NCBI RefSeq assembly: GCF_963921235.1
Contig: NC_086097.1
Location: forward strand, 84,074,001-84,138,000
Source: Mobula hypostoma
Taxonomy: Eukaryota
Direction of reading: 5' to 3'
Length of the DNA stretch: 64,000 nt
Below the pieces are notes generated by a model. It worked only from the letters and a program-made list of their open reading frames with translations, was not told the DNA's origin and made no database searches. This document shows, piece after piece, positions 8,086 to 54,204 of this stretch. Made by a program: the position numbers and the translations under genes. How positions within the stretch are numbered: the stretch's first letter is position 1; each line of letters opens with the position of its first letter.

Positions 8086-9017
8086 ATGACTGTGAGGGCA
8101 GTTTGCTGTTCTCGGTGTCGGATGTGGGAGGCCCTGGAGTCTCCAAGCCTCCCGGACGTCTACATCTGCGCCAAGTGCATCGAGATGCAGCTCCTAAGGG
8201 ACCGCGTTACGGAACTGGAGCTGCAGCTCGATGACCTTCGTCTGGTCAGGGAGAGCGAGGAGGTGATAGGAGTGGAAGGCAGGTGGTCATGGCGGGGCCA
8301 CGGGAGGCAGACAAGTGGGTCACGGTTAGGAGGGGGAAGGGGAAAAGTCAGGTGATGGGGAGTACCCCGGTGGCTGTGCCCCTTAACAACAGGTACTCCT
8401 GTTTGAGTACTGTTGGAGGGGACAGCTTACCCGGGGGAAGCGACAGTGGCCCTGCCTCCGGCACAGAGTCTGGCCCTGTAGCTCAGAAGGGTAGGGCAAG
8501 GAAGAGGAGGGCAGTTGTGATAGGGGACTCGATAGTAAGGGGGTCAGATAGGCGATTCTGTGGACGCAGTCCAGAGACCCGGATGGTAGTTTGCCTCCCT
8601 GGTGCCAGGGTCCGGGATATTTCTGATCGTGTCCAAGATATCCTGAAGTGGGAGGGTGAGGAGCTAGAGGTCGTGGTACAGATAGGTACCAATGACATAG
8701 GTAGGAAAAGGGATGAGGTCCTGAAAGGAGAATATAGGGAGTTAGGAAGGGAGTTGAGAAAAAGGACCGCAAAGGTAGTAATCTCGGGATTACTGCCTGT
8801 GCCACGTGACAGTGAGAGTAGGAATGCGATGAGGTGGAGGATAAATGCGTGGCTGAGGGATTGGAGCAGGGGGCAGGGATTCAAGTTTTTGGATCATTGG
8901 GACCTCTTTTGGTGCAGGCGTGACCTGTACAAAAAGGACGGGTTACACTTGAATCCTAGGGGGACCAATATCCTGGCAGGGAGATTAGCGGGGGCTACTG
9001 AGGTGACTTTAAACTAG
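8086..9017 (+). pseudogene. CR1 ORF1p (zinc finger/leucine zipper + SGNH esterase), one frameshift near 8270
   Basis: CSRC..CAKC..LELQLDDL in ORF 8062-8355; VIGDSIVR, GTND and DGLHLN in ORF 8283-9017. Confidence 0.9.
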
Positions 9018-9022
9018 AATGG

Positions 9023-12000
9023 TTGGGGAGTGGGAATCAAATTAAAGAGGCTAGGCGTGAGGAGGTTAGTTCACAACAGAGGGATGGGAACCAGTGCAGA
9101 GAGACAGAGGGGTGTAAAGTGAGCGTAGAAGCAAAAAGTACAAAGGAGAAAAGTAAAAGTGGCAGGCCGACAAATCCAGGGCAAGCATTAAAAAAGGCCA
9201 CTTTTCAACATAATTGTACAAGGGCTAAGAGAGTTGTAAAAGAGTGCCTGAAGGCTTTATGTGTCAATGCAAGGAGCATTCGTAATAAGGTGGATGAATT
9301 GAAAGTGCAGATTGTTATTAATGATTATGATATAGTTGGGATCACAGAGACATGGCTCCAGGGTGACCAGGGATGGGAGCTCAACGTTCAGGGATATTCA
9401 ATATTCAGGAGGGATAGACATGAAGGAAGGGGAGGTGGCGTGGTGTTGCTGGTTAAAAAAGAGATTAACGCAATAGAAAGGAAGGACATAAGCTGGGAAG
9501 ATGTGGAATCGATATGGGTAGAGCTGCGTAACACTAAGGGGCAGAAGACGCTGGTGGGAGTTGTGTACAGGCCACCTAACAGTAGTAGTGAGGTCAGAGA
9601 TGGTATTAAACAGGAAATTAGAAATGTGTGCAATAAAGGAACAGCAGTTATAATGGGTGACTTCAATCTACATGTAGACTGGGTGAACCAAATTGGTAAA
9701 GGTGCAGAGGAAGAGGATTTCTTGGAATGTATGCGGGATGGTTTTTTGAACCAACATGTCGAGGAACCAACTAGAGAGCAGGCTATTCTGGACTGGGTTT
9801 TGAGCAATGAGGAAGGGTTAATTAGCGATCTTGTCGTGAGAGGCCCCTTGGGTAAGACTAACCATAATATGGTGGAATTCTTCATTAACATGGAGAGTGA
9901 CATAGTTAATTCAGAAACTTAAAGAGGGGTAACTTTGAAGGTATGAGACGTGAATTAGCTAAGATAGACTGGCAAATGACACTTAAAGGATTGACGGTGG
10001 ATATGCAATGGCAGGCATTTAAGGGTTGCATGGATGAACTACAACAATTGTTCATCCCAGTTTGGCAAAAGAATAAATCAAGGAAGGTAGTGCACCCGTG
10101 GCTGACAAGAGAAATTAGGGATAGTATCAATTCCAAAGAAGTAGCATACAAATTAGCCAGAGAAAGTGGCTCACCTGAGGACTGGGAGAAATTCAGAGTT
10201 CAGCAGAGGAGGACAAAGGGCTTAATTAGGAAGGGGAAAAAAGATTATGAGAGAAAACTGGCAGAGAACATAAAAACGGACTGTAAAAGCTTTTATAGAT
10301 ATGTAAAAAGGAAAAGACTGATAAAGACAAATGTAGGTCCCCTGCAGACAGAAACAGGTGAATTGATTATGGGGAGCAAGGACATGGCAGACCAATTGAA
10401 TAATTACTTTGGTTCTGTCTTCACTAAGGAGGACATAAATAATCTTCCAGAAATAGTAAGGGACAGAGGGTCCAGTGAGATGGAGGAACTGAGTGAAATA
10501 CATGTTAGTAGGGAAGTGGTGTTAGGTAAATTGAAGGGATTGAAGGCAGATAAATCCCCAGGGCCAGATGGTCTGCATCCTAGAGTGCTTAAGGAGGTAG
10601 CCCAAGAAATAGTGGATGCATTAGTGATAATTTTTCAAAACTCGTTAGATTCTGGACTAGTTCCTGAGGATTGGAGGGTGGCTAATGTAACCCCACTTTT
10701 TAAAAAAGGAGGGAGAGAGAAACCGGGGAATTATAGGCCGGTTAGCCTAACGTCGGTGGTGGGGAAACTGCTGGAGTCAGTTATCAAGGATGTGATAACA
10801 GCACATTTGGAAAGCGGTGAAATGATCGGACAAAGTCAGCATGGATTTGTGAAAGGAAAATCATGTCTGACGAATCTCATAGAATTTTTTGAGGATGTAA
10901 CTAGTAGAGTGGATAGGGGAGAACCAGTGGATGTGGTATATTTGGATTTTCAAAAGGCTTTTGACAAGGTCCCACACAGGAGATTAGTGTGCAAACTTAA
11001 AGCACACGGTATTGGGGGTAAGGTATTGGTGTGGGTGGAGAATTGGTTAGCAGACAGGAAGCAAAGAGTGGGAATAAACGGGACCTTTTCAGAATGGCAG
11101 GCGGTGACTAGTGGGGTACCGCAAGGCTCAGTGCTGGGACCCCAGTTGTTTACAATATATATTAATGACTTGGATGAGGGAATTAAATGCAGCATCTCCA
11201 AGTTTGCGGATGACACGAAGCTGGGTGGCAGTGTTAGCAGTGAGGAGGATGCTAAGAGGATGCAGGGTGACTTGGATAGGTTGGGTGAGTGGGCAAACTC
11301 CTGGCAGATGCAATTTAATGTGGATAAATGTGAAGTTATCCACTTTGGTGGCAAAAATAGGAAAACTGATTATTATCTGAATGGTGGCCGATTAGGAAAA
11401 GGGGAGGTGCAACGAGACCTGGGTGTCATTATACACCAGTCATTGAAAGTGGGCATGCAGGTACAGCAGGCGGTGAAAAAGGCGAACGGTATGCTGGCAT
11501 TTATAGCGAGAGGATTCGAGTACAGGAGCAGGGAGGTACTACTGCAGTTGTACAAGGCCTTGGTGAGACCACACCTGGAGTATTGTGTGCAGTTTTGGTC
11601 CCCTAATCTGAGGAAAGACATCTTTGCCATAGAGGGAGTACAAAGAAGGTTCACCAGATTGATTCCTGGGATGGCAGGTCTTTCATATGAAGAAAGACTG
11701 GATGAACTGGGCTTGTACTCGTTGGAATTTAGAAGATTGAGGGGGGATCTGATTGAAACGTATAAGATCCTAAAGGGATTGGACAGGCTAGATGTGGGAA
11801 GATTGTTCCTGATGTTGGGGAGGTCCAGAACGAGGGGTCACAGTTTGAGGATAGAGGGGAAGCCTTTTAGGACCGAGATTAGGAAAAACTTCTTCACACA
11901 GAGAGTGGTGAATCTGTGGAATTCTCTGCCACGGCAAACTGTTGAGGCCAGTTCATTGGCTATGTTTAAGAGGGAGTTAGATATGGCCCTTGTGGCTACA

Positions 12001-12036
12001 GGGGTCAGGGGGTATGGAGGGAAGGCTGGGTTCTGA
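9023..12036 (+). pseudogene. CR1 ORF2p (APE endonuclease + reverse transcriptase), one frameshift near 9917
   Basis: NARSIRNK, GITETWL, GDFN (APE); PGPDG, YRPVSLTS, GVPQGSVLGP, FADD (RT). ORFs 9023-9922 and 9943-12036 are otherwise uninterrupted. Confidence 0.95.
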
Positions 12037-12231: not shown

Positions 12232-15200
12232 TTAACATCTAGATAAACAATCAGCGATCACGTTATATTTACCCTTAATATGAGTGATCAAAATATTGTA
12301 CTCCTGTAATATTAGACTCCAATTTAATAACCTTCTATTTTTTTTTTCATCTTACTCAAAAACACTAACGGATTGTGATCGGTATAAACTGTGAGTGGTT
12401 TATGAGTAGTACCAACATACACTTCAAAATGTTGTAAAGCCAAAACAAGAGATAACAACTCTTTCTCTATTGTTGAATAATTTCTTTGACGGGCATTAAA
12501 TTTCTTAGAAAGATAAGCCACCAGACAATCAACTTCATCACCATCATCTCTTTGAAGTAACACTGCTCCTGCAGCTTCATCACTAGTATCTACAGCTAAC
12601 AAAAATATTTTTTCAAAGTCAGGAGATTTAAGTACAGGTTGACTACATATTATAGTTTTCAATTTATCAAATGCCTCCTGACAAGACTCTGTCCAAACAA
12701 ACTTTTCATTTTTCTTCAAGAGATTAGTCAATGGAAGAGCAATGTTGGCAAAATCTTTACAGAATTTTCTGTAATATCCTACCATACCCAAGAATCTTCT
12801 GAGAGTTTTTCTACAAGTTGGAGTGGGTACTTCTAAAATTGCCTGAACTTTTGCTTGAACAGGTGCTAATTTCCCCTGACCCACAACATAACCAAGGTAA
12901 GTAACTGTGGCATGATCAAATTCACTTTTAGCTAAGTTAATAGTTAAGTTAGCTTTTGAAAGTCTCTCAAATAGTTTCTTCCCTGCAGTAATATGTGCTT
13001 TCCACGTATTATTTCCTGTAACTAAATCATCAATATATGCATCTGTATCTTTTAATTCCTGAATCACACTATTAATCATCCTCTGAAAAATACCTGGTGC
13101 ATTCTTCATCCCAAATGGAAGAACATTATATTCATATAACCCAGAGGGGTTACAAATGCAGAAATCTCTCTACCTCTATCCGTCAATGGAACACACCAAT
13201 AACCTTTTAACAAATCAATTTTTGTAAGGAATTTGGCCTGTCCAACTTTATTCACACAATCATCTACCCTAGGGATTGGATATGCATCAGTTTTTGTCAC
13301 AGCATTCACCTTTCTGTAATCTGTACAAAACCTAATATTATTGTCTGGCTTTGGCACCATAACGCACGGTGAAATCCAATTCGAATTAGAAGGTCTAATA
13401 ATATTATTCTCTAACATATACTTAATTTCTCATACAGCAAGTTCACATTTTTCCCTGTTCATTCGATACGGATTTTGTTTTAAGGGTTTTGCATCTCCAA
13501 CATCTACATCATGCGTAGCTACGGTGGTTCTTCTAGGGAAGTGTGGAAATAAATCTCTATATTTAAAAATTAACTGTTTCATCTGCTCTCTCTGCTCTGG
13601 CTGTAAGTGAACTAATTTTTCATCAATATTTTCTAGAATTTTTGAATTTGGTAACCTGGCTGAAATAATTTTGGGTTTAAAATGAGTTTCAGATGAATCC
13701 TCCATTAAGTTTTTATCAAGATCAGACTCATTATTGATCACAACAGTCATAGTGGCAATCTCTCTCTCATAATACCGTTTTATCATATTTATATGACACA
13801 GCTGTGTTGTCTTTCTCCGATCTGGCGTTTTTACCACATAATCCACATCATTTACCTTAGATTTAATCTCATAAGGTCCATGAAATTTGGCTTGTAATGG
13901 GTTCGTTTGCACTGGGAAAAGAACCAACACCTTATCTCCAGGCTTAAATGACCTCATCCTAGCTTCCCTATCATACCAAGCCTTCATCTTCTCTTGAGCT
14001 AACTTTAAATTTTCCTTGGCCAAGCTACAAGCTTTATACAACCTTCTTTTAAATTTTAAAACATAATCTAGCAAATTAGTATGTACTTCTTTATTAATCC
14101 ACTGTTCCTTCAACAAGGCCAAAGGTCCTCGAAATCTATGTCCAAACACAAGTTCAAAAGGACTAAAATCTAATGATTCCTGTACTGCCTCCCTTACTGC
14201 AAAAAGTAGTAAAGTATACCTGCATCCCAGTCCTTTTCATTTTCCACACAGTATGTCCTAATCATAGTTTTTAGTGTAGAATGAAATCTCTCCAAGGCTC
14301 CTTGTAATTCTGGATGATAGGCTGAGGAAATAATCTGTTTTGCTCCCAGTTTATAAACTATCTGCTGAAACAACCCAGACATAAAGTTACTACCTTGATC
14401 TGATTGTATTTCTTTAGGCAACCCAAAATAAGTAAAGAATTTTATAAGAGCCTTTGTCACAGTTTTGGCTGTTATATTCCTAAGAGGTACTGCCTCTGGA
14501 AACCTAGATGCTGTGCACATAATAGTTAATAAATATTGATGTCCAGTTTTAGTTTTTGGCAAAGGACCTACACAGTCTACAATGATTTTTGAGAACGGCT
14601 CACCCAATACTGGGATTGGTTGCAGTGGGGCCACTGGAGTAACCTGTTTAGGTTTACCCACAATTTGACACGTATGTCATGTTCTACAAAATGTCACCAC
14701 ATCTTGTCTTAAACTAGGCCAATAAAAATGTTTAGAAACTTTGTTCATAGTTTTCTTTACACCTAAATGACTACCCAAAGGAATACTATGAACCAGATTT
14801 AAAATCTCATTTCAGTAAATTTTAGGAACTACTACCTGATGATTAACTTCCCATTCCTCACTAGCAGGAATTGTAGGCAATCTCCACTTTCTCATTAATA
14901 CCCCCTTTTCAAAATAATATCTGACTGGCACTTTTTCAATTTCACTATCTGGAAGAGCTTGTTCTTTTAATTTAACTATCTCAGGATCTCTACCCTGCTC
15001 TGCTATCATCTCCTTCCGAGAAAAAGACAAATCTTCCTGGTCAGACTTAACACCAAAATCCTGATCAAATAATATAGGTAAGAAAGTTTCTGATACATCC
15101 TCAAAATTCGAATCTTGATTTGAACTGTCATGGGTAACAACCTCATCCTTTACATCACTCTTTTTAGCCATAGCTCTTGTTACAACACAGGAAGAATCTG

Positions 15201-16762
15201 TGTTAGAATCCCTCTGTGGTTCCTCAGAATTTGAATTTATTGTCAAATTGCACTTCAGGAAAAACTTGTCCACCTGCTAAATCATTCCCTAGCAAAAGAG
15301 AAACATCATTCATAGGTAAACTGGATTGTAATCCTACTTTAACAACCCCTGTAACTAATCCTGACCTTAAATTTACTCTATGTAAATGTACTGGCATAAG
15401 GGCACTTCCAACTCCTCTTATATAATTTACCTCATGAGTGTCAGACTCATCACTAAACTTTAGCACCCTGTCTAATATTAGTGATTGAGAAGCTCCGGTA
15501 TCTCTAAGTATCCTTATTGGTACTGAATTGGATCCTTCTTTCAAGGATACAAATCCTTTTGTTATATAAGTTTCATATCCTTTCTTAACTCGGTCAGACT
15601 CTAACACATCTTCATTAATATTTTCTGAACCCTGTGGCTTTACAAGTTTTTCAATATGCTGCACACAAGCATCTGGGTCTACTTCTTTCTCTTTCCTTTT
15701 CAATCGAAAGCAATTAGCTACTACATGTCCAGGTTTTTTACAATAATTACAAACAATACCAGAATGTCTTTCCTTCACATGTCTCCCTTCATCCTTACTT
15801 ATCTCACTAACTTCAGATTTAATGTCTGATTTACCTTGACTCTCTGTGCTAGTTTTCCTTTTAAAAATTTTACCTGGAGAAAATTTATTCTTGTGAATTA
15901 AAACATACTCATCAGCTAGTTTAGCAATTTCCTGCAATGTAGCAGTGTCCCGTTTATTTAAGTATGTTCTCACTTCAACAGGAATGCTTCTTTTAAATTC
16001 CTCCTGCAAAATCAACTCTTTTAATTTATTGTTCTCCCCATTCACATTTTTAGAGGAAACCCATCTCTCAAAACACACAAATTTCTTACAGGCAAATTCC
16101 ACATAAGTTTTTTCCACCGATTTCTTCAAACTTCTGAATCTTTCTCTATACGCTTCAGGAACCATCTCATATGCCTTTAATATACGTTGCTTAACAATAT
16201 CATAATCCAGTGCTTGCTCAGCATCTAAAGCTGTATAAACTTGTTGTACCTTGCCTTTAATTACACTTTGTGACATCACTGGCCATAGCTCTTTCGGCCA
16301 CTTTAAACTCAGAGCAACAGTTTCAAAATGTTTGGAAATATTTGTCCACTTCAGCTTCATTAAATGGAGGAGCCAAAATAACCTCACGACTAGCAATAAA
16401 CTGTTTCATAGAACCAGAAGACTGATTCCCGGACTTCAATTTCTGCATCTCTAGCTCAAATTTCCTCTGGTTTTCAGTTTCTTTCCGACTCTTTTCCAAA
16501 TAAGCTTCTAATTACTTTAACTGTATTTGTTCAAGATGTAACTGCATTTCCAGCTTACTCATTGGAACTTATCTAACACCTCCTCATCAAACAATTTCAA
16601 AGTAATATAATGCTCAGTGATTTTTCTTTGTATGAAAGCCTTGGTGGAATTCTTCTTAATTCCTTTAATATCCAACTTCCTAGCAATCTCCAATACCTCA
16701 GGTTTTCTCACATTCACTAAAGACCCTAAGTCAGGTGTGTCCATAAACCCGTCAATATCCAT
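12232..16762 (-). pseudogene. Gmr1 gag-pol: SCAN-like capsid, CCHC knuckle, protease, integrase, RT, RNase H (several frameshifts and stops)
   Basis: CNYCKKPGHVVANC, LRDTGAS, IVDCVGPL..SDQGSNF..YHPELQGALER (INT, 14194-14661), FCTDYRKVN..KIDLLKGY and YIDD (RT), AVDTS..NYSTIEKE (RH). Ends VIADCLSRC* at 12232. Confidence 0.93.
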
Positions 16763-19459: not shown

Positions 19460-20345
19460 GAAGCTTTTCCAGCATATGTTTTTGGAGACATAACAACGTT
19501 CTCAAAGTTGTAACAGAAGCGGTTGAGCAGAGAGTACTGCAGCACAACTTATCTCATGCCCCATGCTGCACAGAACATCGCATATCATTTGTGAAAGAAG
19601 GCTCCAAGTCAAGGGTGTACAGCATAGGCTCACGATCAAGCATACTTTCTTCAGCCAATGATTGGTGTGTCAAGGCTGACTTGGACGGGAAAGGCAGTTT
19701 CCCGGAGCAAATAGCTTTTACAACATTGCGTCCAGATATAATCGTATGGTCTGACACCAGTCGAGAAGCGGTTATTGGTGAACTCACAGTCCGCTGGGAA
19801 GACAACATCGATGAAGCCCATGAGCGCAAGTTAACCAAGTATGCAGAATTAAGATCAGAGTGCAGAGACAGAGGGTGGAAGGTCTCATGCTATCCATTCG
19901 AAGTAGGCTGCCGTGGGTTTATTGCGTTCACTCTCCAGAAGTGGCTGCGTGACTTTGGCTTCACTAGAAGTGAGATCAAGTCAACCAGCAGGGCTGTAGC
20001 TGAGGCAGCAGAGAAAGGATCAGCATGGGTGTGGACCAAGTATATCCAGAGGGGCAGATAGTCAGACAGTGTATACATATCTTGCAAACCCTTCAGTAGT
20101 TGCATAGACACCTGAAGAGTAGACTATCTGTTGGATGGAAGTGATCAACAACTCTGATAGAGGCAGATGCCAAGTTTTTAAGCTCACCAGTGGGAGGTTG
20201 TGCTTTAGCACTGCTGGCCCACCACCTCGAGGGAGTCTTGATCATAAGCGGGCCAAAACTCCTGAAGACAGGTGGCAAATCAATTGATAATCCCACTGGT
20301 GATAGCACAGAACAGTTAACATCTTAGTCCACGTGTATTTTGTAA
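19460..20345 (+). mobile_element. Hero-type RLE non-LTR retrotransposon, 5'-truncated (family A)
   Basis: WRHNNVL, LRPDIIVWS..IGELTVRWE..RKLTKYAEL..PFEVGCRGF is a restriction-like endonuclease domain. Stop at 20061, then a ~280-nt 3' UTR. Confidence 0.85.
20184..20302 (+). ncRNA. Candidate structured RNA (permuted hammerhead-like core + kink-turn) in Hero family A 3' UTR
   Basis: 12-bp closing stem and five further helices that map one-to-one onto 38378-38495 with compensatory changes. See findings. Confidence 0.65.
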
Positions 20346-20859
20346 CTCTATGTTGCATTACCCTGGCATTTATATTATGATAATGAAAAATAGCAGTTAC
20401 CCAGAAGATGATGGGATATTCCGATGAAATGAATGATATGACAAGACAGCCTGAACTTGTTAGAATGCAGCATTATATGTAGTTTATTGGTGTACTTCTG
20501 AAAGACCTGGTAGTACTAGATATAAAGAAAGAAAGATATTCTTTTCACCAATATAATTAGTTTCAACAGGCACAGTAAAATCACTGCCTTCAAACAATTT
20601 AGAATTAGCTTTCTAGATGTTAGTTCAGAACTGCACACAAATTTTCCCAATAATTATTTTACCATGTTACTCACCACAACAATGTTTTCTTTCATTGTTA
20701 AAATTGATAATAATCTGTATGTTTTTACTCCTTTCTGTTAGCATTATTGAGTGGGTTGGAAGTTTAACCATTTGAAAACTTGAGTCCCTCATGTAGACTG
20801 GGATAAGCTTCAAATTGCTGAGGCACTACACCTTCGTACAGCAAGTTTGGGTGTGAAGA

Positions 20860-37603: not shown

Positions 37604-38515
37604 ATGATCTTTGGAAAGCTGAACCACACCGCATCCAATTTCTCATCCAGGCAGTGTACGATGTGCTTCCAAGCCCATCAAACCTGCACACATGGGGCAA
37701 GGCAGAGTCACCTGCGTGCCCACTGTGCTCCAAGTGAGGAACCCTGGAGCACATCCTCAGCGGCTGCGCAAGGGCACTTGGTGAGGGACAGTACAGGTGG
37801 AGGCATGATCAGGTCCTGAAGACCATTGCTGAAGCCGTCAGCACAGGAGTTGAGTGGGTGAAGTGGTCCCGACCCTCCAAGCAGACCATTGCCTTTGTCA
37901 GAGCTGGGGAGCAGCCAATACCTGCCAAAAGAACATCTGCAGGCATCCTGACCTCTGCAAGGGACTGGCAGCTGTTGGTGGACCTCGAACGGCAGCTGAA
38001 GTTCCCCAACCATATCGCAGCCACCACCCTGCGACCAGACATTGTCCTACTGTCTGAGTCTACTAAGCAAGTGGTGCTGCTGGAGCTGACAGTCCCATGG
38101 GAAGATAGCTTGGAACAGGCCTTTGAAAGGAAGCTCTCCAAGTATGCAGGACTGGTCAGCAACTGTCAGCAGGCTGGATGGAGAGCGAGGTGTCTGCCAG
38201 TGGAGGTTGGCTGTAGGGGATTCATAGCCTGTTCTTTAGTTAGGGCCTTCAGCATTTTGGGTATCGAGGGAGAGAGGAAGAGGAGAGCCATCCGCAGTAC
38301 CGCCGACGCGGCAGAGAGGACCTCAAGATGGCTGTGGCTCAGAAGAAGGGAGCCATGGAGTCATACGTAGCTAGCCATCTGGACACAAGCTGGGGTCTGA
38401 TCAGCCCCGGCTGGGTCACCTGGAGGAGGTTGTATGATGTTGAAAGACCCGAAACACCCGATGATTCCAGGAACATCACTGAAGATGTGTCCAGAAGCAT
38501 CAGTAGATGTATATA
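37604..38515 (+). mobile_element. Hero-type RLE non-LTR retrotransposon, 5'-truncated (family B), in slc10a1 intron 3
   Basis: AVYDVLPSPSNLHTWG, CPLC..LEHILSGC zinc knuckle, YRWRHDQVL, LRPDIVL..LELTVPWE..KLSKY..PVEVGCRGF. Stop at 38370. Confidence 0.9.
38378..38495 (+). ncRNA. Candidate structured RNA (permuted hammerhead-like core + kink-turn) in Hero family B 3' UTR
   Basis: 10-bp closing stem, five further helices, and CUGAAGA / GAAA / GUA placed as in a hammerhead core. See findings. Confidence 0.7.
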
Positions 38516-38693
38516 CACAACAGTAAGAATGTAGTAATACCCTTAATACGTACTTTTACTCTAATTCCTACCACACTTATCTGCGTGCAAAATCAAGTTT
38601 ACTCTTTGATTGTAGAATCATAAAGAGAGGTACTGAAGACAAGTATTTTGATTGTTATGACAGAACTACTTGTACTCCAATAAATCACGTTAC

Positions 38694-50248: not shown

Positions 50249-51848
50249 TTAACGGAAATTTGAGAAATCAGTGTTTATGCCATCAGGTTGGAGGCTACCC
50301 AGACGGAATATAAGATGTTGTTCCTCCAACCTGAGTGTGGCTTCATCTTGACAGTAGAGGAGGCCATGGATTGACATATCGGAATGGGAATGGGACGTGG
50401 AATTAAAATGTGTGGCCACTGGGAGATCCTGCTTTTTCTGGTGGACAGAGCGTAGGTGATCAGCGAAACGGTCTCCCAGTCTGCATCGGGTCTCACCAAT
50501 ATATAGAAGGCCACACCGGGAGCACTGGACGCAGTATATCACCCCAGCCGACTCACAGGTGAAGTGTCGCCTCACCTGGAAGAACTGTCTGGGGCCCTGA
50601 ATGGTGGTGAGGGAGGAAGTGTAAGGGCATGTGTAGCACTTGTTCTGCTTACAAGGATAAGTGCTGGGAAGGAGATCAGTGGGAAGGGATGTGGGGGATG
50701 AATAGACAAGGGAGTCGCATGGGGAGCGATCCCTGCGGAAAGCGAGGGGGGGGAGGGAAAAATGTGGTTATTGGTGGGATCCTGTTGGAGGTGGCAGAAG
50801 TTACGGAAAATTATATGTTGGACCCAGAGGCTGGTGGGGTGGTAGGTGAGGACAAGGGGAACCCTATTCCTAGTACGGTGGTGGGAGGATGGGGTGAGAG
50901 CAGATGTGCGTGAAATGGGAGAGATGTGTTTGAGAGCTGAGTCGATGGTGGAGAAAGGGAAGCCCCTTTCTTTAAAAAAGGAGGACATCTCCTTCGTCCT
51001 GGAATGAAAAGCCTCATCCTGAGAGCAGATGTGGTGGAGACGGAGGAATTGCGAGAAGGGGATGGCAATTTTGCAAGAGACAGGGTAAGAAGAGGAATAG
51101 TCCAGGTAGCTGTGAGAGTCTGTAGGCTTATAGTAGACATCAGTAGATAAGCTGTCTCCAGAGATAGAGACAGAAAGATCAAGAAAGGAGAGGGAGGTGT
51201 CGGAAATAGACCAGGTAAATTTGAGGGCAGGGTGAAAGTTGGAGGCAAAGTTAATGAAGTCAATGAGCTCAGCATGCGTGCAGGAAGCAGCACCAATGCA
51301 GTAGTTGATGTAGCGAAGGAAAAGTGGGGGACAGATACCAGTATAGGCACGGAACATAGGTTGTTCCACAAACCCAACAAAAAGGCAGGCATAGCTAGGA
51401 CCCATACGGGTGCCCATAGCTACACCTTTAATTTGGAGGAAGTGGGAGGAGCCAAAGGAGAAATTATTAAGAGTAAGGACTAATTCCGCTAGACAGAGGA
51501 GAGTGGTGGTAGAGAGGAATTGGTTAGGTCTGGAATCCAAAAAGAAGTGGAGAGCTTTAGACCTTCCTAGTAGGGGATGGAGGTATATAGGGACTGGACA
51601 TCCATGGTGAAATAAGGCAGTGGGGGCCAGGGAACTTAAAATCATCGAAAAAATTCAGAGCGTGAGAAGTGTCACGAACAGAGGTAGGAAGGGATTGAAC
51701 AAGGGCTGATAAAACAGTGTCAAGGTATGAAGAAACGAGTTCGGTGGGGCAGGAGCAAGCTGAGACAATGGGCCTACCTGGCCAGGCAGGTTTGTGGATC
51801 TTGGGTAGGAGGTAGAAACGGGAAGCGCGGGATGTGGGAACTATAAAG
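50249..51848 (-). pseudogene. Penelope-like RT + GIY-YIG endonuclease (frameshifted)
   Basis: FYLLPKIHK..GRPIVS, QIKGVAMGTRMGPSYA, FLRYINY (YIDD-like), FLDLSV, VYYKPTD, VIYCVQC..LYIGET. Confidence 0.92.
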
Positions 51849-54204
51849 GTCATCTTTAAAATTTTTGTACGGTAACCCTTCGGAACCACCACTTGGTGCA
51901 CCACGGCCCTATCCTCATCGGCAGGTGCTGTCAGTGGTTTCCACGTCCTCATTAGTACCCAGTCCTTCAGATAGTAACTCATTGACTCCCTCTGAATTTC
52001 ATCCTCAGAAAGAGCTGTCCCTTTTAAAACTGCAATCTCAGGATCCCTATCCTGCTCTTCCACAAGCTTCCACCTGGACAATGACAAACCCCTCTTATCC
52101 GCCTCACTACCTGGGTCCTGGTCGAACACAGATGGTAGAAAAGTTTCAGATAAGTCAGTAGGATCTGTACCCCTGTCTTTGCTACCGCAGGCACCTGGCC
52201 CCTCCCGTCCAGATCGCTTCATTTCTGCAGCCTTTCTTGTCATGCTTCTTGTGATCGCACATGTGGGATAAAGTTCACTGTCTGCACTTGTCTCACTAAC
52301 AGCAGGCCAGCTTGTTAGCTGTAACTCTGGGTATACATCTTTTCCTGCCAGGTCATTTCCCAACAAGAGGTCCACGTTAGCTATCGGTAATTTAGGTCGT
52401 ATCCCTATCTCAAATGGTCCAGACACTAAGTCACATTTCAAAATTATTTTGTGCAAAGGCACGACCTCTGTTCCCTTGCCAATACCTTCCAGAATATTCA
52501 CTTGGTCCGTTTTTGTCTCGTCACCAAATTCTAAGATATCACTGAATATCAGTGACTGAACGGCTCCAGTATTGTGCCAGATTCTCACTGGAACTAGGGG
52601 TGACCCCTCCCTCACAGACACAAAATCCTTGATAATAAACCACTCAATCCCTTCCTGAACTTGGCCAGATCCCACCTTCCTTCGTGTAGTCTCAGCCACT
52701 GGCGCACACGCGTTGGGAGTTTCCCCTTCTCCTTTCCCATTTCTTTCTTCTGAATAAGACAGTTAGACGCCACATGGCCAGGCTTCCTGCAGTAGTAACA
52801 GGTAAAACTGGAAAACTTATCTTTGGTCAGTTTCCCCTCCTCTTTACCTCTGTCACTAGCTCCCGCCTTGTTTTCTGTTTTACTCGGCGGATTATCATGG
52901 TAACTCTTCTGATAACCCTTGCTCGGGAAAAACGTAATCTTATGAGTCAGGGCAAACTTATCCGCTAACCTAGCAGCCGCGGAAAGAGTCTCAACCTCTT
53001 TCTCTTCTAAGTATGTCCGTATCTCACTAGGGACACACTCTTTAAATTCCTCGACCAGCATCAGCTGTCTCACTTTGTGGTAGTCCTCGTCTACCTCTTT
53101 CGAGGCACACCACCAATCAAAGTACCTCTCCTTTTCACGGGCAAACTCTATATACGTCTGGTTCCCAGACTTCCTCAAACCCCAAAACTTCTGTTGGTAC
53201 ACTTCTGGCACCATTTCATAGACCTTAAGCACAGCCTCCTTCACAGCATCATAATTAGTCGGCTCAGTCACAGACAAGGCAGAATATGCTTGCTGCGCCT
53301 TCCCTTTTAACACACTTTGCAGCAATACTGCCCAGTCCTCCGTCAGCCACTTCCTGTTCTGAGCCACTTTCTCAAAATGTAGGAACTACCTATCAACGTC
53401 TCCTTCAGCAAACGGAGATACCAACTTAATTTCCTGACTGTCATTAATTGATACACCCCTCTCGCCACCACTGCCTGACACTTGACCCTCTTGATGCTGC
53501 ATCTCCCTCTCAAACTCCCTCTGTCTTTCTGCCTCTTCTCTCTGTTTTTCTGCCTCTTTAGCCTCGAGCTGTTTCAGTTGCAACTCATGCTGTCTTTTCC
53601 TATCCTCAGCCTCTGGCCTGCATATCCTGAATCTCAGCCTCAGTAAGTTTACCTCCAGCGAACATTCTCAATACATCCTCAGTAAATTGTTTCGTCAAAA
53701 CATAATATTCAACTATTTTTCTTTGAATTTCTATCTTAGACATACCTTTCTTTACCTCAATTCTCAATTCTTTAGCGATGTCCCGCACAACGTCCTTTTT
53801 AGCTCTCTGCAAAATCACAGGGTTTGGCTTTGCCAGAAATTTTGCAACATCCATTTCTGTTGTTTTTCCACACAAAGATTAATTACAAGGGATTTCCCCA
53901 ATCAAGACAAGCCCCCACACAATTTCAAAAATTGGCTCCAACCAAATTTGATCTGATCCTGGACGAGCCCCCAATTTTGTCACGAACCCCGTGATGGGTT
54001 GAAAAGGACCAGCAGAAACGGAACACACCTGGAGTCTGGTTTACTATAAATTAAGACTATATTTATTACTACTACGAATTAATATCATTAAACTGGATAA
54101 TACGATACAGGTTATAAACTATTTATATATACACACACAGTATATCCGTAAATGTGTGTGTGGATACAAAAATCCAGGAGGTAGATATCAGTCTTACGGT
54201 GTCA
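51849..54204 (-). mobile_element. Second Gmr1-like family: partial 5' LTR (53978-54204), tRNA-Pro PBS (53956-53973), gag (SCAN-like + CCHC) and protease; truncated just before integrase
   Basis: PBS TGGGGGCTCGTCCAGGAT; CYYCRKPGHVASNC; WHNTGAVQS; HQVVVPK. All are homologous to 14812-16762. Confidence 0.9.

Follow-up and report, generated by a model that had tools for sequence, protein, structure and literature searches.

Does the 3′ untranslated region (UTR) of a degraded retrotransposon copy in Mobula hypostoma encode a self-cleaving RNA, and if so, what would such an RNA do for the element that carries it? The question is raised by a compact set of helices at positions 20184–20302 of the window, the 64,000-nucleotide stretch of contig NC_086097.1 (assembly GCF_963921235.1) that was analysed. 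The initial annotation assigned this flagged copy to a family A and proposed that it has a hammerhead-type fold in common with a family B copy elsewhere in the window. The reading that best explains the whole of the data, to which we give a probability of roughly 55%, is that the flagged copy is a decayed member of its family, and that the intact fold would self-cleave, yielding unit-length monomers that become circles and are reverse transcribed for more than one round.

The two open reading frame (ORF) remnants beside the motifs are C-terminal parts of non-LTR retrotransposon proteins of the restriction-like endonuclease (RLE) type. Pfam assigned no family to either remnant. Relatives of the window ORFs carry RVT_1, and a profile built from 21 relatives recognizes R2 proteins of solved structure (E 6.5e-9). 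The elements have a single ORF in which the reverse transcriptase (RT) is followed by a zinc knuckle and a PD-(D/E)xK endonuclease, the arrangement of the R2 group. Among the top relatives are Takifugu Q76IN2 and Tetraodon Q7T1J8, to which family B is ~59–65% and family A ~37–45% identical; we take the former to be HEROFr and the latter to be Zebulon. Zebulon of Tetraodon has a tandem structure. The “Hero” label for families A and B is plausible, and the HERO clade likewise has one ORF with RT, zinc knuckle and PD-(D/E)xK domains and is not site-specific (PMC3636483, PMC2790886). A Cys/His motif upstream of the RT is described as absent from this clade (PMC2790886); a C-x-C...H...C motif is found in one homologous protein (P0049) and at the 5′ ends of both families, and the reference HERO entries may be 5′-incomplete. 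Six copies are internally deleted, with the ORF start fused to the 3′ end (L016, L019, L023, L045, L048, L054). The window also holds other long reading frames at 9002–12036 (+), 12324–16405 (−) and 50572–53385 (−), probably further retroelements, and its positions 52344–53436 are 65% like the interior of a Gypsy-like element. The flagged ORF remnant comprises 199 codons, and the motif region starts 122 nt past its stop (Table 1).

Table 1. Positions, within the window, of the two retrotransposon copies and of the predicted parts of the fold.
Feature	Position	Strand	Remark
5′-truncated RLE-type non-LTR retrotransposon copy, family A, HERO-like	19466..20350	+	Extent common to 29 other loci
C-terminal ORF remnant, restriction-like endonuclease motif RPD..ELTV.WE	19462..20061	+	Stop at 20059–61
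P1, 5′ strand	20184..20195	+	Pairs with 20291–20302
P2 hairpin, 8 positions, loop 20204–07	20196..20215	+	Adjoins P1 and G10.1
Stem II, 10.x strand (helix a), upstream-displaced	20216..20220	+	G10.1 = 20216
Helix b, 5′ strand, counterpart of the type-SGC stem I–II interaction helix	20222..20227	+	
Kink-turn consensus, non-bulged strand (C-G-A)	20228..20230	+	
Stem III, 16.x strand, and C17	20231..20237	+	Predicted scissile bond 20237/20238
Stem I, 1.x strand (helix d)	20238..20242	+	
Stem II, 11.x strand (a′)	20250..20254	+	
G12-A13-A14 and stem III, 15.x strand (c′)	20255..20263	+	G12 is A in the flagged copy
Kink-turn consensus, bulged strand (GAA-GA-C)	20264..20269	+	
Helix b, 3′ strand	20270..20275	+	
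Stem I, 2.x strand (d′), and core 3–9	20279..20290	+	UUGAUAA in the flagged copy, CUGAUGA in the family
P1, 3′ strand, immediately 3′ of A9	20291..20302	+	
3′ tail without poly(A)	20303..20350	+	In full-length copies the tail continues into the element's own 5′ head
5′-truncated family B copy	37606..38520	+	
Family B C-terminal ORF remnant, RLE-type	37738–38370		
Family B motif, core intact	38378..38495	+	GUA 38432–34, GAAA from 38451, CUGAAGA 38479–85

The helices listed in the initial annotation were all found where it had placed them. In the flagged copy, the strands of P1, of the hairpin 20200–20203/20208–20211 and of helices a, b and d complement each other exactly, and helix c (20231–20236/20258–20263) consists of five Watson-Crick pairs and one G-U. 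The GTGC/GCAC hairpin is present as described, though its extent had been drawn too short: P2 spans 20196–20203/20208–20215, with zero linker to P1 and to helix a, and has a T-T mismatch where 26 of 30 copies have G. The nested fold of the flagged region has a z-score of −3.39, with none of 200 shuffles equally stable, and the minimum-energy folds, computed under a nested-only model, do not contain the core. The identical helix order recurs at 38378–38495, so the two families do share one fold. The family B motif in the window has a single U-C mismatch within stem III, and among family B copies the intact core is nearly invariant.

The core letters of the flagged copy are TTGATAA at 20284–20290, AAAA at 20255–20258 and GTC at 20235–20237. 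The first of these had been read as a U3-A8 covariation within the core, U3-A8 being a known natural hammerhead variant (PMC3088659). A family A set was assembled from the best 30 of 40 scored loci, out of 1748 candidates selected by likeness to the flagged copy. In this set C3 is found in 28/30 copies and G8 in 28/30, so the consensus lacks the fixed U3 and A8 that the covariation called for; 27 of the 30 read CUGAUGA, and U3 and A8 occur together in the window copy alone. Over the genome, the double change was seen in 2 of 949 matches, about the chance level of ~0.3–0.8 expected from the rates of single changes (among the first 100 matches listed, three others have A8 alone and one other has U3 alone), and it was seen in none of 21 matches from related families. 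U3-A8 is thus a rarity of the flagged copy and not a family trait. The accompanying suggestion that AAAA at 20255 reflects CpG decay fared better: GAAA is the family A consensus, with G at this position in 22/30 copies. G12 is the general base of the hammerhead, and since it is replaced by A here and the 5′ part of the element is missing, the flagged copy is probably catalytically inactive.

The core recurs far beyond this copy. A search of genome G000 for a pattern of GAAA and CUGAnGA blocks gave 3716 matches, against 104 on the reversed control, from at least six sequence families. Relatives of the ORF were also sought in metagenomes, and the best 80 of 198 loci were kept. A descriptor combining the core with stems I and III found the motif on the ORF strand, after the ORF, in 47 of these 80, with no match on the opposite strand and none on the reversed sequence. 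Of the 33 missed loci, 15 have at most 160 nt of downstream sequence, in 13 the motif looks decayed or partial by eye, and 5 have enough downstream DNA yet show no motif by eye. As a guard against circularity, a second descriptor specified helices only and no core letters. It returned 21 matches in 20 of the 80 loci, and each control gave one match in 41 kb. Among the 21, CUGAnGA (C3-U4-G5-A6-N7-G8-A9) was present in 20 and GAAA in 19, one other reading AAAA as in the flagged copy; G12-A13-A14 and the A15.1-U16.1 pair were likewise present in 19/21, the flagged copy departing at position 12. An NUH triplet (GUC, GUU, GUA or AUA) preceded the predicted cut in 20/21, and position 17 was never G among the 20 true matches, which supports, as a prediction, the scissile site originally placed after the GUC ending at 20237. 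The matches span ORFs down to ~35% identity.

Stems I, II and III covary. In a structure-blind MAFFT alignment of 29 non-redundant motifs, 89.7% of 389 cells in stems I–III were paired, compared with 63.4% after shuffling and 36–45% after sliding, and 12 of 14 pairs vary on both sides; kinship was controlled in part, through the slid controls and de-duplication. This covariation across families, together with the recovery of the core by a search blind to its letters, bears out the hammerhead-type core proposed at the outset. The motif is not confined to the G000 genome, because named teleost and amphioxus proteins extend into it at their C-termini, one of them across 42 residues (E 9e-16). In some metagenome elements (L116, L123, L132, L138, L094) tRNA-like letters lie between the ORF and the motif; tRNA genes were considered for the tRNA-like UTRs of soil loci and rejected, as ARAGORN found 0 in 12.

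A natural control is provided by a Gypsy-like LTR element that carries the last 85–90 nt of family A within its LTR, antisense to its own ORF (loci L171–L186 of G000, matching window 20259–20349). This element has SCAN, zf-CCHC and weak integrase zinc-binding matches and LTRs of ~900 bp that lie 4.1 kb apart, and most of a set of 2710 pattern matches derives from it. In the passenger, CUGAUGA is retained in none of 20 copies read, having drifted to CUGCUGA or CUGUUGA; the copies have one shared ancestor and some loci overlap, so that they count as one event and not twenty. The loss of the core in the passenger favours a function of the core within the retrotransposon. A step in sequence depth had suggested a SINE sharing the 3′ tail, which proved to be this LTR element with its last ~85–90 nt of family A. 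A matching depth step was observed in contigs of two other organisms.

The strands of the fold follow one another in the order P1, P2, a, b, c, H17, d, a′, GAAA, c′, b′, d′, CUGAnGA, P1′, and the hammerhead blocks thus come in the order S, G, C, that of the type-SGC hammerheads. Stem II is displaced from its usual position. Of 29 non-redundant motifs defined without reference to stem II, 22 contain an upstream partner for a′ that pairs perfectly over 5 bp, whereas 2000 shuffles gave a mean of 3.1 and a maximum of 9, and no perfect partner was found at the usual place after A9 (0/27), which rules out the canonical type-SGC pairing of a′ with the post-A9 strand. The G10.1-C11.1 pair is kept in 28/29. 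A9 instead continues into P1′, P1 abuts P2, and P2 abuts G10.1: P1 has at least 7 bp in 23/29 motifs, P2 at least 5 bp in 24/29, and the two abut in 16/29 (raw counts without a shuffle baseline, gaps of 0–1 nt allowed). P1 stacked on P2 would form a perfect four-way junction in place of the A9–G10.1 phosphodiester or of a single bulged base.

Helix b links stems I and II at their far sides, as the corresponding helix does in type-SGC RNAs, and has 4–11 bp in 29/29 motifs by best-helix search, with at least 6 bp in 24. Using the kink-turn definition of PMC4382518, we found that the loop between b and stem III fits the consensus (a 3-nt bulge, then tandem G-A/A-G between two helices) in 18/29 motifs, families A and B included. 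Sixteen of these 18 follow the rule for kink-turns that fold in ions alone, namely 3n=G or 3b=C (PMC4382518). Such a kink would bring stem III round onto helix b. Five motifs (L092, L097, L115, L130, L134) have no kink-turn; in these c′ runs directly into b′, with a one-sided bulge opposite, and AUA triplets are seen.

Type-SGC RNAs (HRIMA-1 and variants) cleave in vitro at 0.007–0.19 per minute (Eckert et al., 2023; PMC10085705). The present fold resembles them in its S-G-C order, short linker between stems I and II, full core consensus and extra helix, here helix b (PMC10085705). It differs from them in that block C is split, the 10.x strand and helix b lying 5′ of block S and not 0–2 nt after CUGAnGA, and in that P1 and P2 are inserted at A9/G10.1, which was assumed to be impossible (PMC10085705). 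Helix b is moreover joined to stem III on both strands through the kink-turn consensus, and the word “kink” has 0 occurrences in the available text of PMC10085705. Type-SGC RNAs came from searches of metatranscriptomes, metagenomes and RefSeq (PMC10085705), whereas the host here is a retrotransposon 3′ UTR. According to the available text of Eckert et al., no known hammerhead has more than 1–2 nt inserted beside CUGAnGA (PMC10085705), which counts against catalysis here, where P1 and P2 occupy that position. Penelope hammerheads often carry one extra base at 9/10.1 (PMC4209133). A helix insertion at this position may have precedent, since hammerhead variants “containing additional helices” are referred to in a paper of 2026, though the available passages of one source that it cites do not describe them. 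Rfam 15 gave nothing at gathering score within the window, and on six loci with E up to 10 it gave five chance-level matches, none of them a ribozyme. In the open full-text literature searched, a hammerhead was described neither for HERO nor for other RLE 3′ UTRs, split-core and kink-turn hammerheads were absent, and the term “type-SGC” occurred only in the original paper; the portion of this literature on the HERO clade yielded no ribozyme or circular intermediate. The alignments support a hammerhead-type fold that would represent a new topological variant with a split core, likely to work like type-SGC and yet outside that type as defined. We consider it likely that intact copies cleave themselves after the NUH triplet.

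The site at which the RNA is predicted to be cut does not coincide with an insertion boundary. Of 16 foreign-flank 5′ junctions, 4 are no more than 2 nt away from it, no excess over the ~3.7 expected; a script had called 20 of 43 matches foreign-flank, and 4 were dropped by eye (L210, L220 and L228 as internal, L191 as split by a later insertion), while L188, L196 and L206 were re-read, their runs having been shortened by point changes. None of 17 candidates clearly ends at H17: three resemble later insertions, most of the others are small indels, and one is ambiguous. The missing footprint is predicted by a ligated circle and also by an RNA that never cuts. Separately, one family A copy (G000:C2:91479772-91480749) is split by a later ~0.9 kb insertion beside the predicted site, and two more copies have similar inserted letters at +2.

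The element's own tail precedes the head in 53 of 60 copies that retain the 5′ head (29/30 in family A, 24/30 in family B), and the tail-to-head junction is letter-exact, with one offset in 24/29 and 23/24, respectively, and tail alleles in the rest. The extra upstream pieces vary in length: relative to the site, their starts range between +90 and roughly −1400. It is crossed by 33 of the 53, and none of the pieces begins within 5 nt of it. In 28/53 the extra piece holds the whole upstream ribozyme region, the head-to-tail arrangement of retrozymes and Penelope elements. No length change or scar was found at any of 34 predicted sites read in head-bearing loci, and no pair among 51 extra-piece copies has a shared host flank. 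Four full-length copies have two ribozyme regions one unit apart. Eight stretches chosen for long extras contain 1.2–1.5 units, with a period of 3.6–3.9 kb in five and deletions or interruptions in three; none of the eight holds two or more full units. Ordinary 3′ ends lie about −4 to +4 nt from the same junction, without poly(A) (31/40 in family A, 41/44 in family B), and in 4 of 25 metagenome loci the ORF N-terminus or start lies downstream of the motif. A search for target-site duplications around five composites found just 6–7 nt matches, in three.

Within single insertions, the two repeats have 24 rare variants in common over 5747 columns (4.2 per kb); background sharing has means of 0.5–1.7 per kb and maxima of up to 6.5, overlapping the observed value, so that this lends modest support to one template for both repeats. 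In one locus (L311) a deletion in the downstream unit is absent from the upstream piece. Extra pieces stop on the tail side of the site more often than on the other side (20 vs 7; p = 0.02, one-sided, uncorrected), which we do not count as evidence, because the truncation hazard may fall with length. Seven 5′ breakpoints lie at +12 to +22 past the site, near a′ and GAAA (L255, L271, L272, L280, L283, L304 and the LTR passenger), and possibly mark stalling of the RT at the pseudoknot.

The lack of a fixed 5′ end, the greater-than-unit length and the continuity over both junction and cut site fit cleavage, circle formation and rolling reverse transcription. Under our preferred reading, ribozymes would cut read-through transcripts of genomic copies of more than unit length into unit monomers, which would probably be ligated into circles by self-ligation or by RtcB. 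Helices P1, II, b and III, 29 bp in family A, span the cut and would clamp both ends, which should favour ligation. The RT would then be primed internally, always at one position on the tail/head junction, and would copy more than one round, thereby regenerating competent copies. Granted catalysis, a role in making circular RNA is rather likely. The genomic data also fit uncut transcripts of a tandem master with the ribozyme as a brake, as well as a dead fold on which the RT docks, and these two accounts deserve to be weighed.

In the first, which we regard as unlikely, the ribozyme is active and makes no circles: cleavage would destroy the element's RNA unless its own protein binds the tail first, acting as a timer for cis-preference or as a copy-number brake, and copies of more than unit length would come from uncut tandem master arrays. 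The structural evidence is identical to that for our preferred reading, and insertions that read through the site without a scar suit this account. So does the position of the stop codon. In 17 of 120 homologous proteins (P0003–P0122) the C-terminal residue pattern puts the last codon on the NUH triplet (window 38432–38437), so that the stop would be the first three bases past the predicted cut, and a cut linear RNA would have no stop codon. However, linear templates cannot regenerate the extra upstream piece, and the pieces reach more than 1.4 kb past the site from starts that are all different and have no shared host flank. Nor was an array of at least two units present among the eight stretches, though assemblies may miss arrays.

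In the second, the fold would be catalytically dead and hammerhead-like only in shape, and would serve solely as a recognition structure for the element's RT. RLE elements such as R2 do bind a structured 3′ UTR, the post-A9 strand is held in P1 and unpaired with a′ (0/27), and the genome has no footprint of cutting. Set against this, stem II is present with its partner upstream, covaries and keeps G10.1-C11.1 in 28/29 motifs, and all core letters as well as the NUH rule return in a search on helices alone down to ~35% ORF identity; if the fold merely bound a protein, one would not expect exactly the catalytic letters to be fixed over that distance. We consider a purely structural role quite improbable. 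That the tail-before-head arrangement has nothing to do with the fold, and arises from template jumping, of which R2-type RTs are capable, or from insertion at the heads of old copies, is very improbable: divergence within insertions (2.9–5.3%) is indeed not much below that between copies (medians 4.2–5.4%), but jumping should give ragged junctions and not letter-exact ones (24/29, 23/24), and for an element dispersed in thousands of copies it is implausible that 53 of 60 head-bearing ones should have arisen by secondary insertion.

The preferred reading, cleavage followed by circularization and rolling reverse transcription, has parallels in Penelope-like elements and animal retrozymes, which likewise have ribozymes one unit apart and partial head-to-tail tandems (PMC4209133, PMC7229834), and for which cleavage, circle ligation and reverse transcription of more than one unit have been proposed (PMC4209133, PMC7229834, bioRxiv 10.64898/2026.07.22.740005). 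For Penelope elements the circular route is a proposal; for retrozymes it has support, RtcB having circularized ~30% to >80% of their monomers in vitro (PMC4209133, PMC7229834). Their hammerheads are of type I, often minimal and dimer-dependent, in GIY-YIG or non-autonomous hosts (PMC4209133, PMC7229834), whereas the candidate described here is pseudoknotted, complete as a monomer and carried by an autonomous RLE non-LTR element. Among LINEs, 5′ ribozymes are HDV-like in R2 (PMC3774820) and twister variants in Perere-3 (PMC8501958). The predicted self-cleaving RNA described here is likewise encoded by a LINE-type element; unlike theirs, which are at the 5′ end and set the insertion boundary, it lies in the 3′ UTR, with a predicted cut site that forms no such boundary.

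The split core would break the stated assumption that the hammerhead consists of three indivisible blocks with six possible orders, and would explain how thousands of copies in a genome escape Rfam and pattern searches. The candidate ribozyme is located in a LINE's 3′ UTR, whereas the known LINE ribozymes are 5′, and it offers a testable account of why these elements are arranged head to tail. At somewhat less than even odds, and so only tentatively, we suggest that an autonomous RLE-type LINE clade, whose range takes in fish and amphioxus as well as eukaryotes of soil and sea, relies for its replication on circular RNA, produced by a hammerhead outside the six described permutations that has a split core, a four-way junction at A9/G10.1 and a kink-turn. 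Cut ends clamped by ~29 bp could also serve the production of circular RNA. If the circles are real, the template of an R2-group element would be circular and primed internally, which would bear on the basic target-primed reverse transcription (TPRT) model as well as on gene-insertion tools based on the R2 group.
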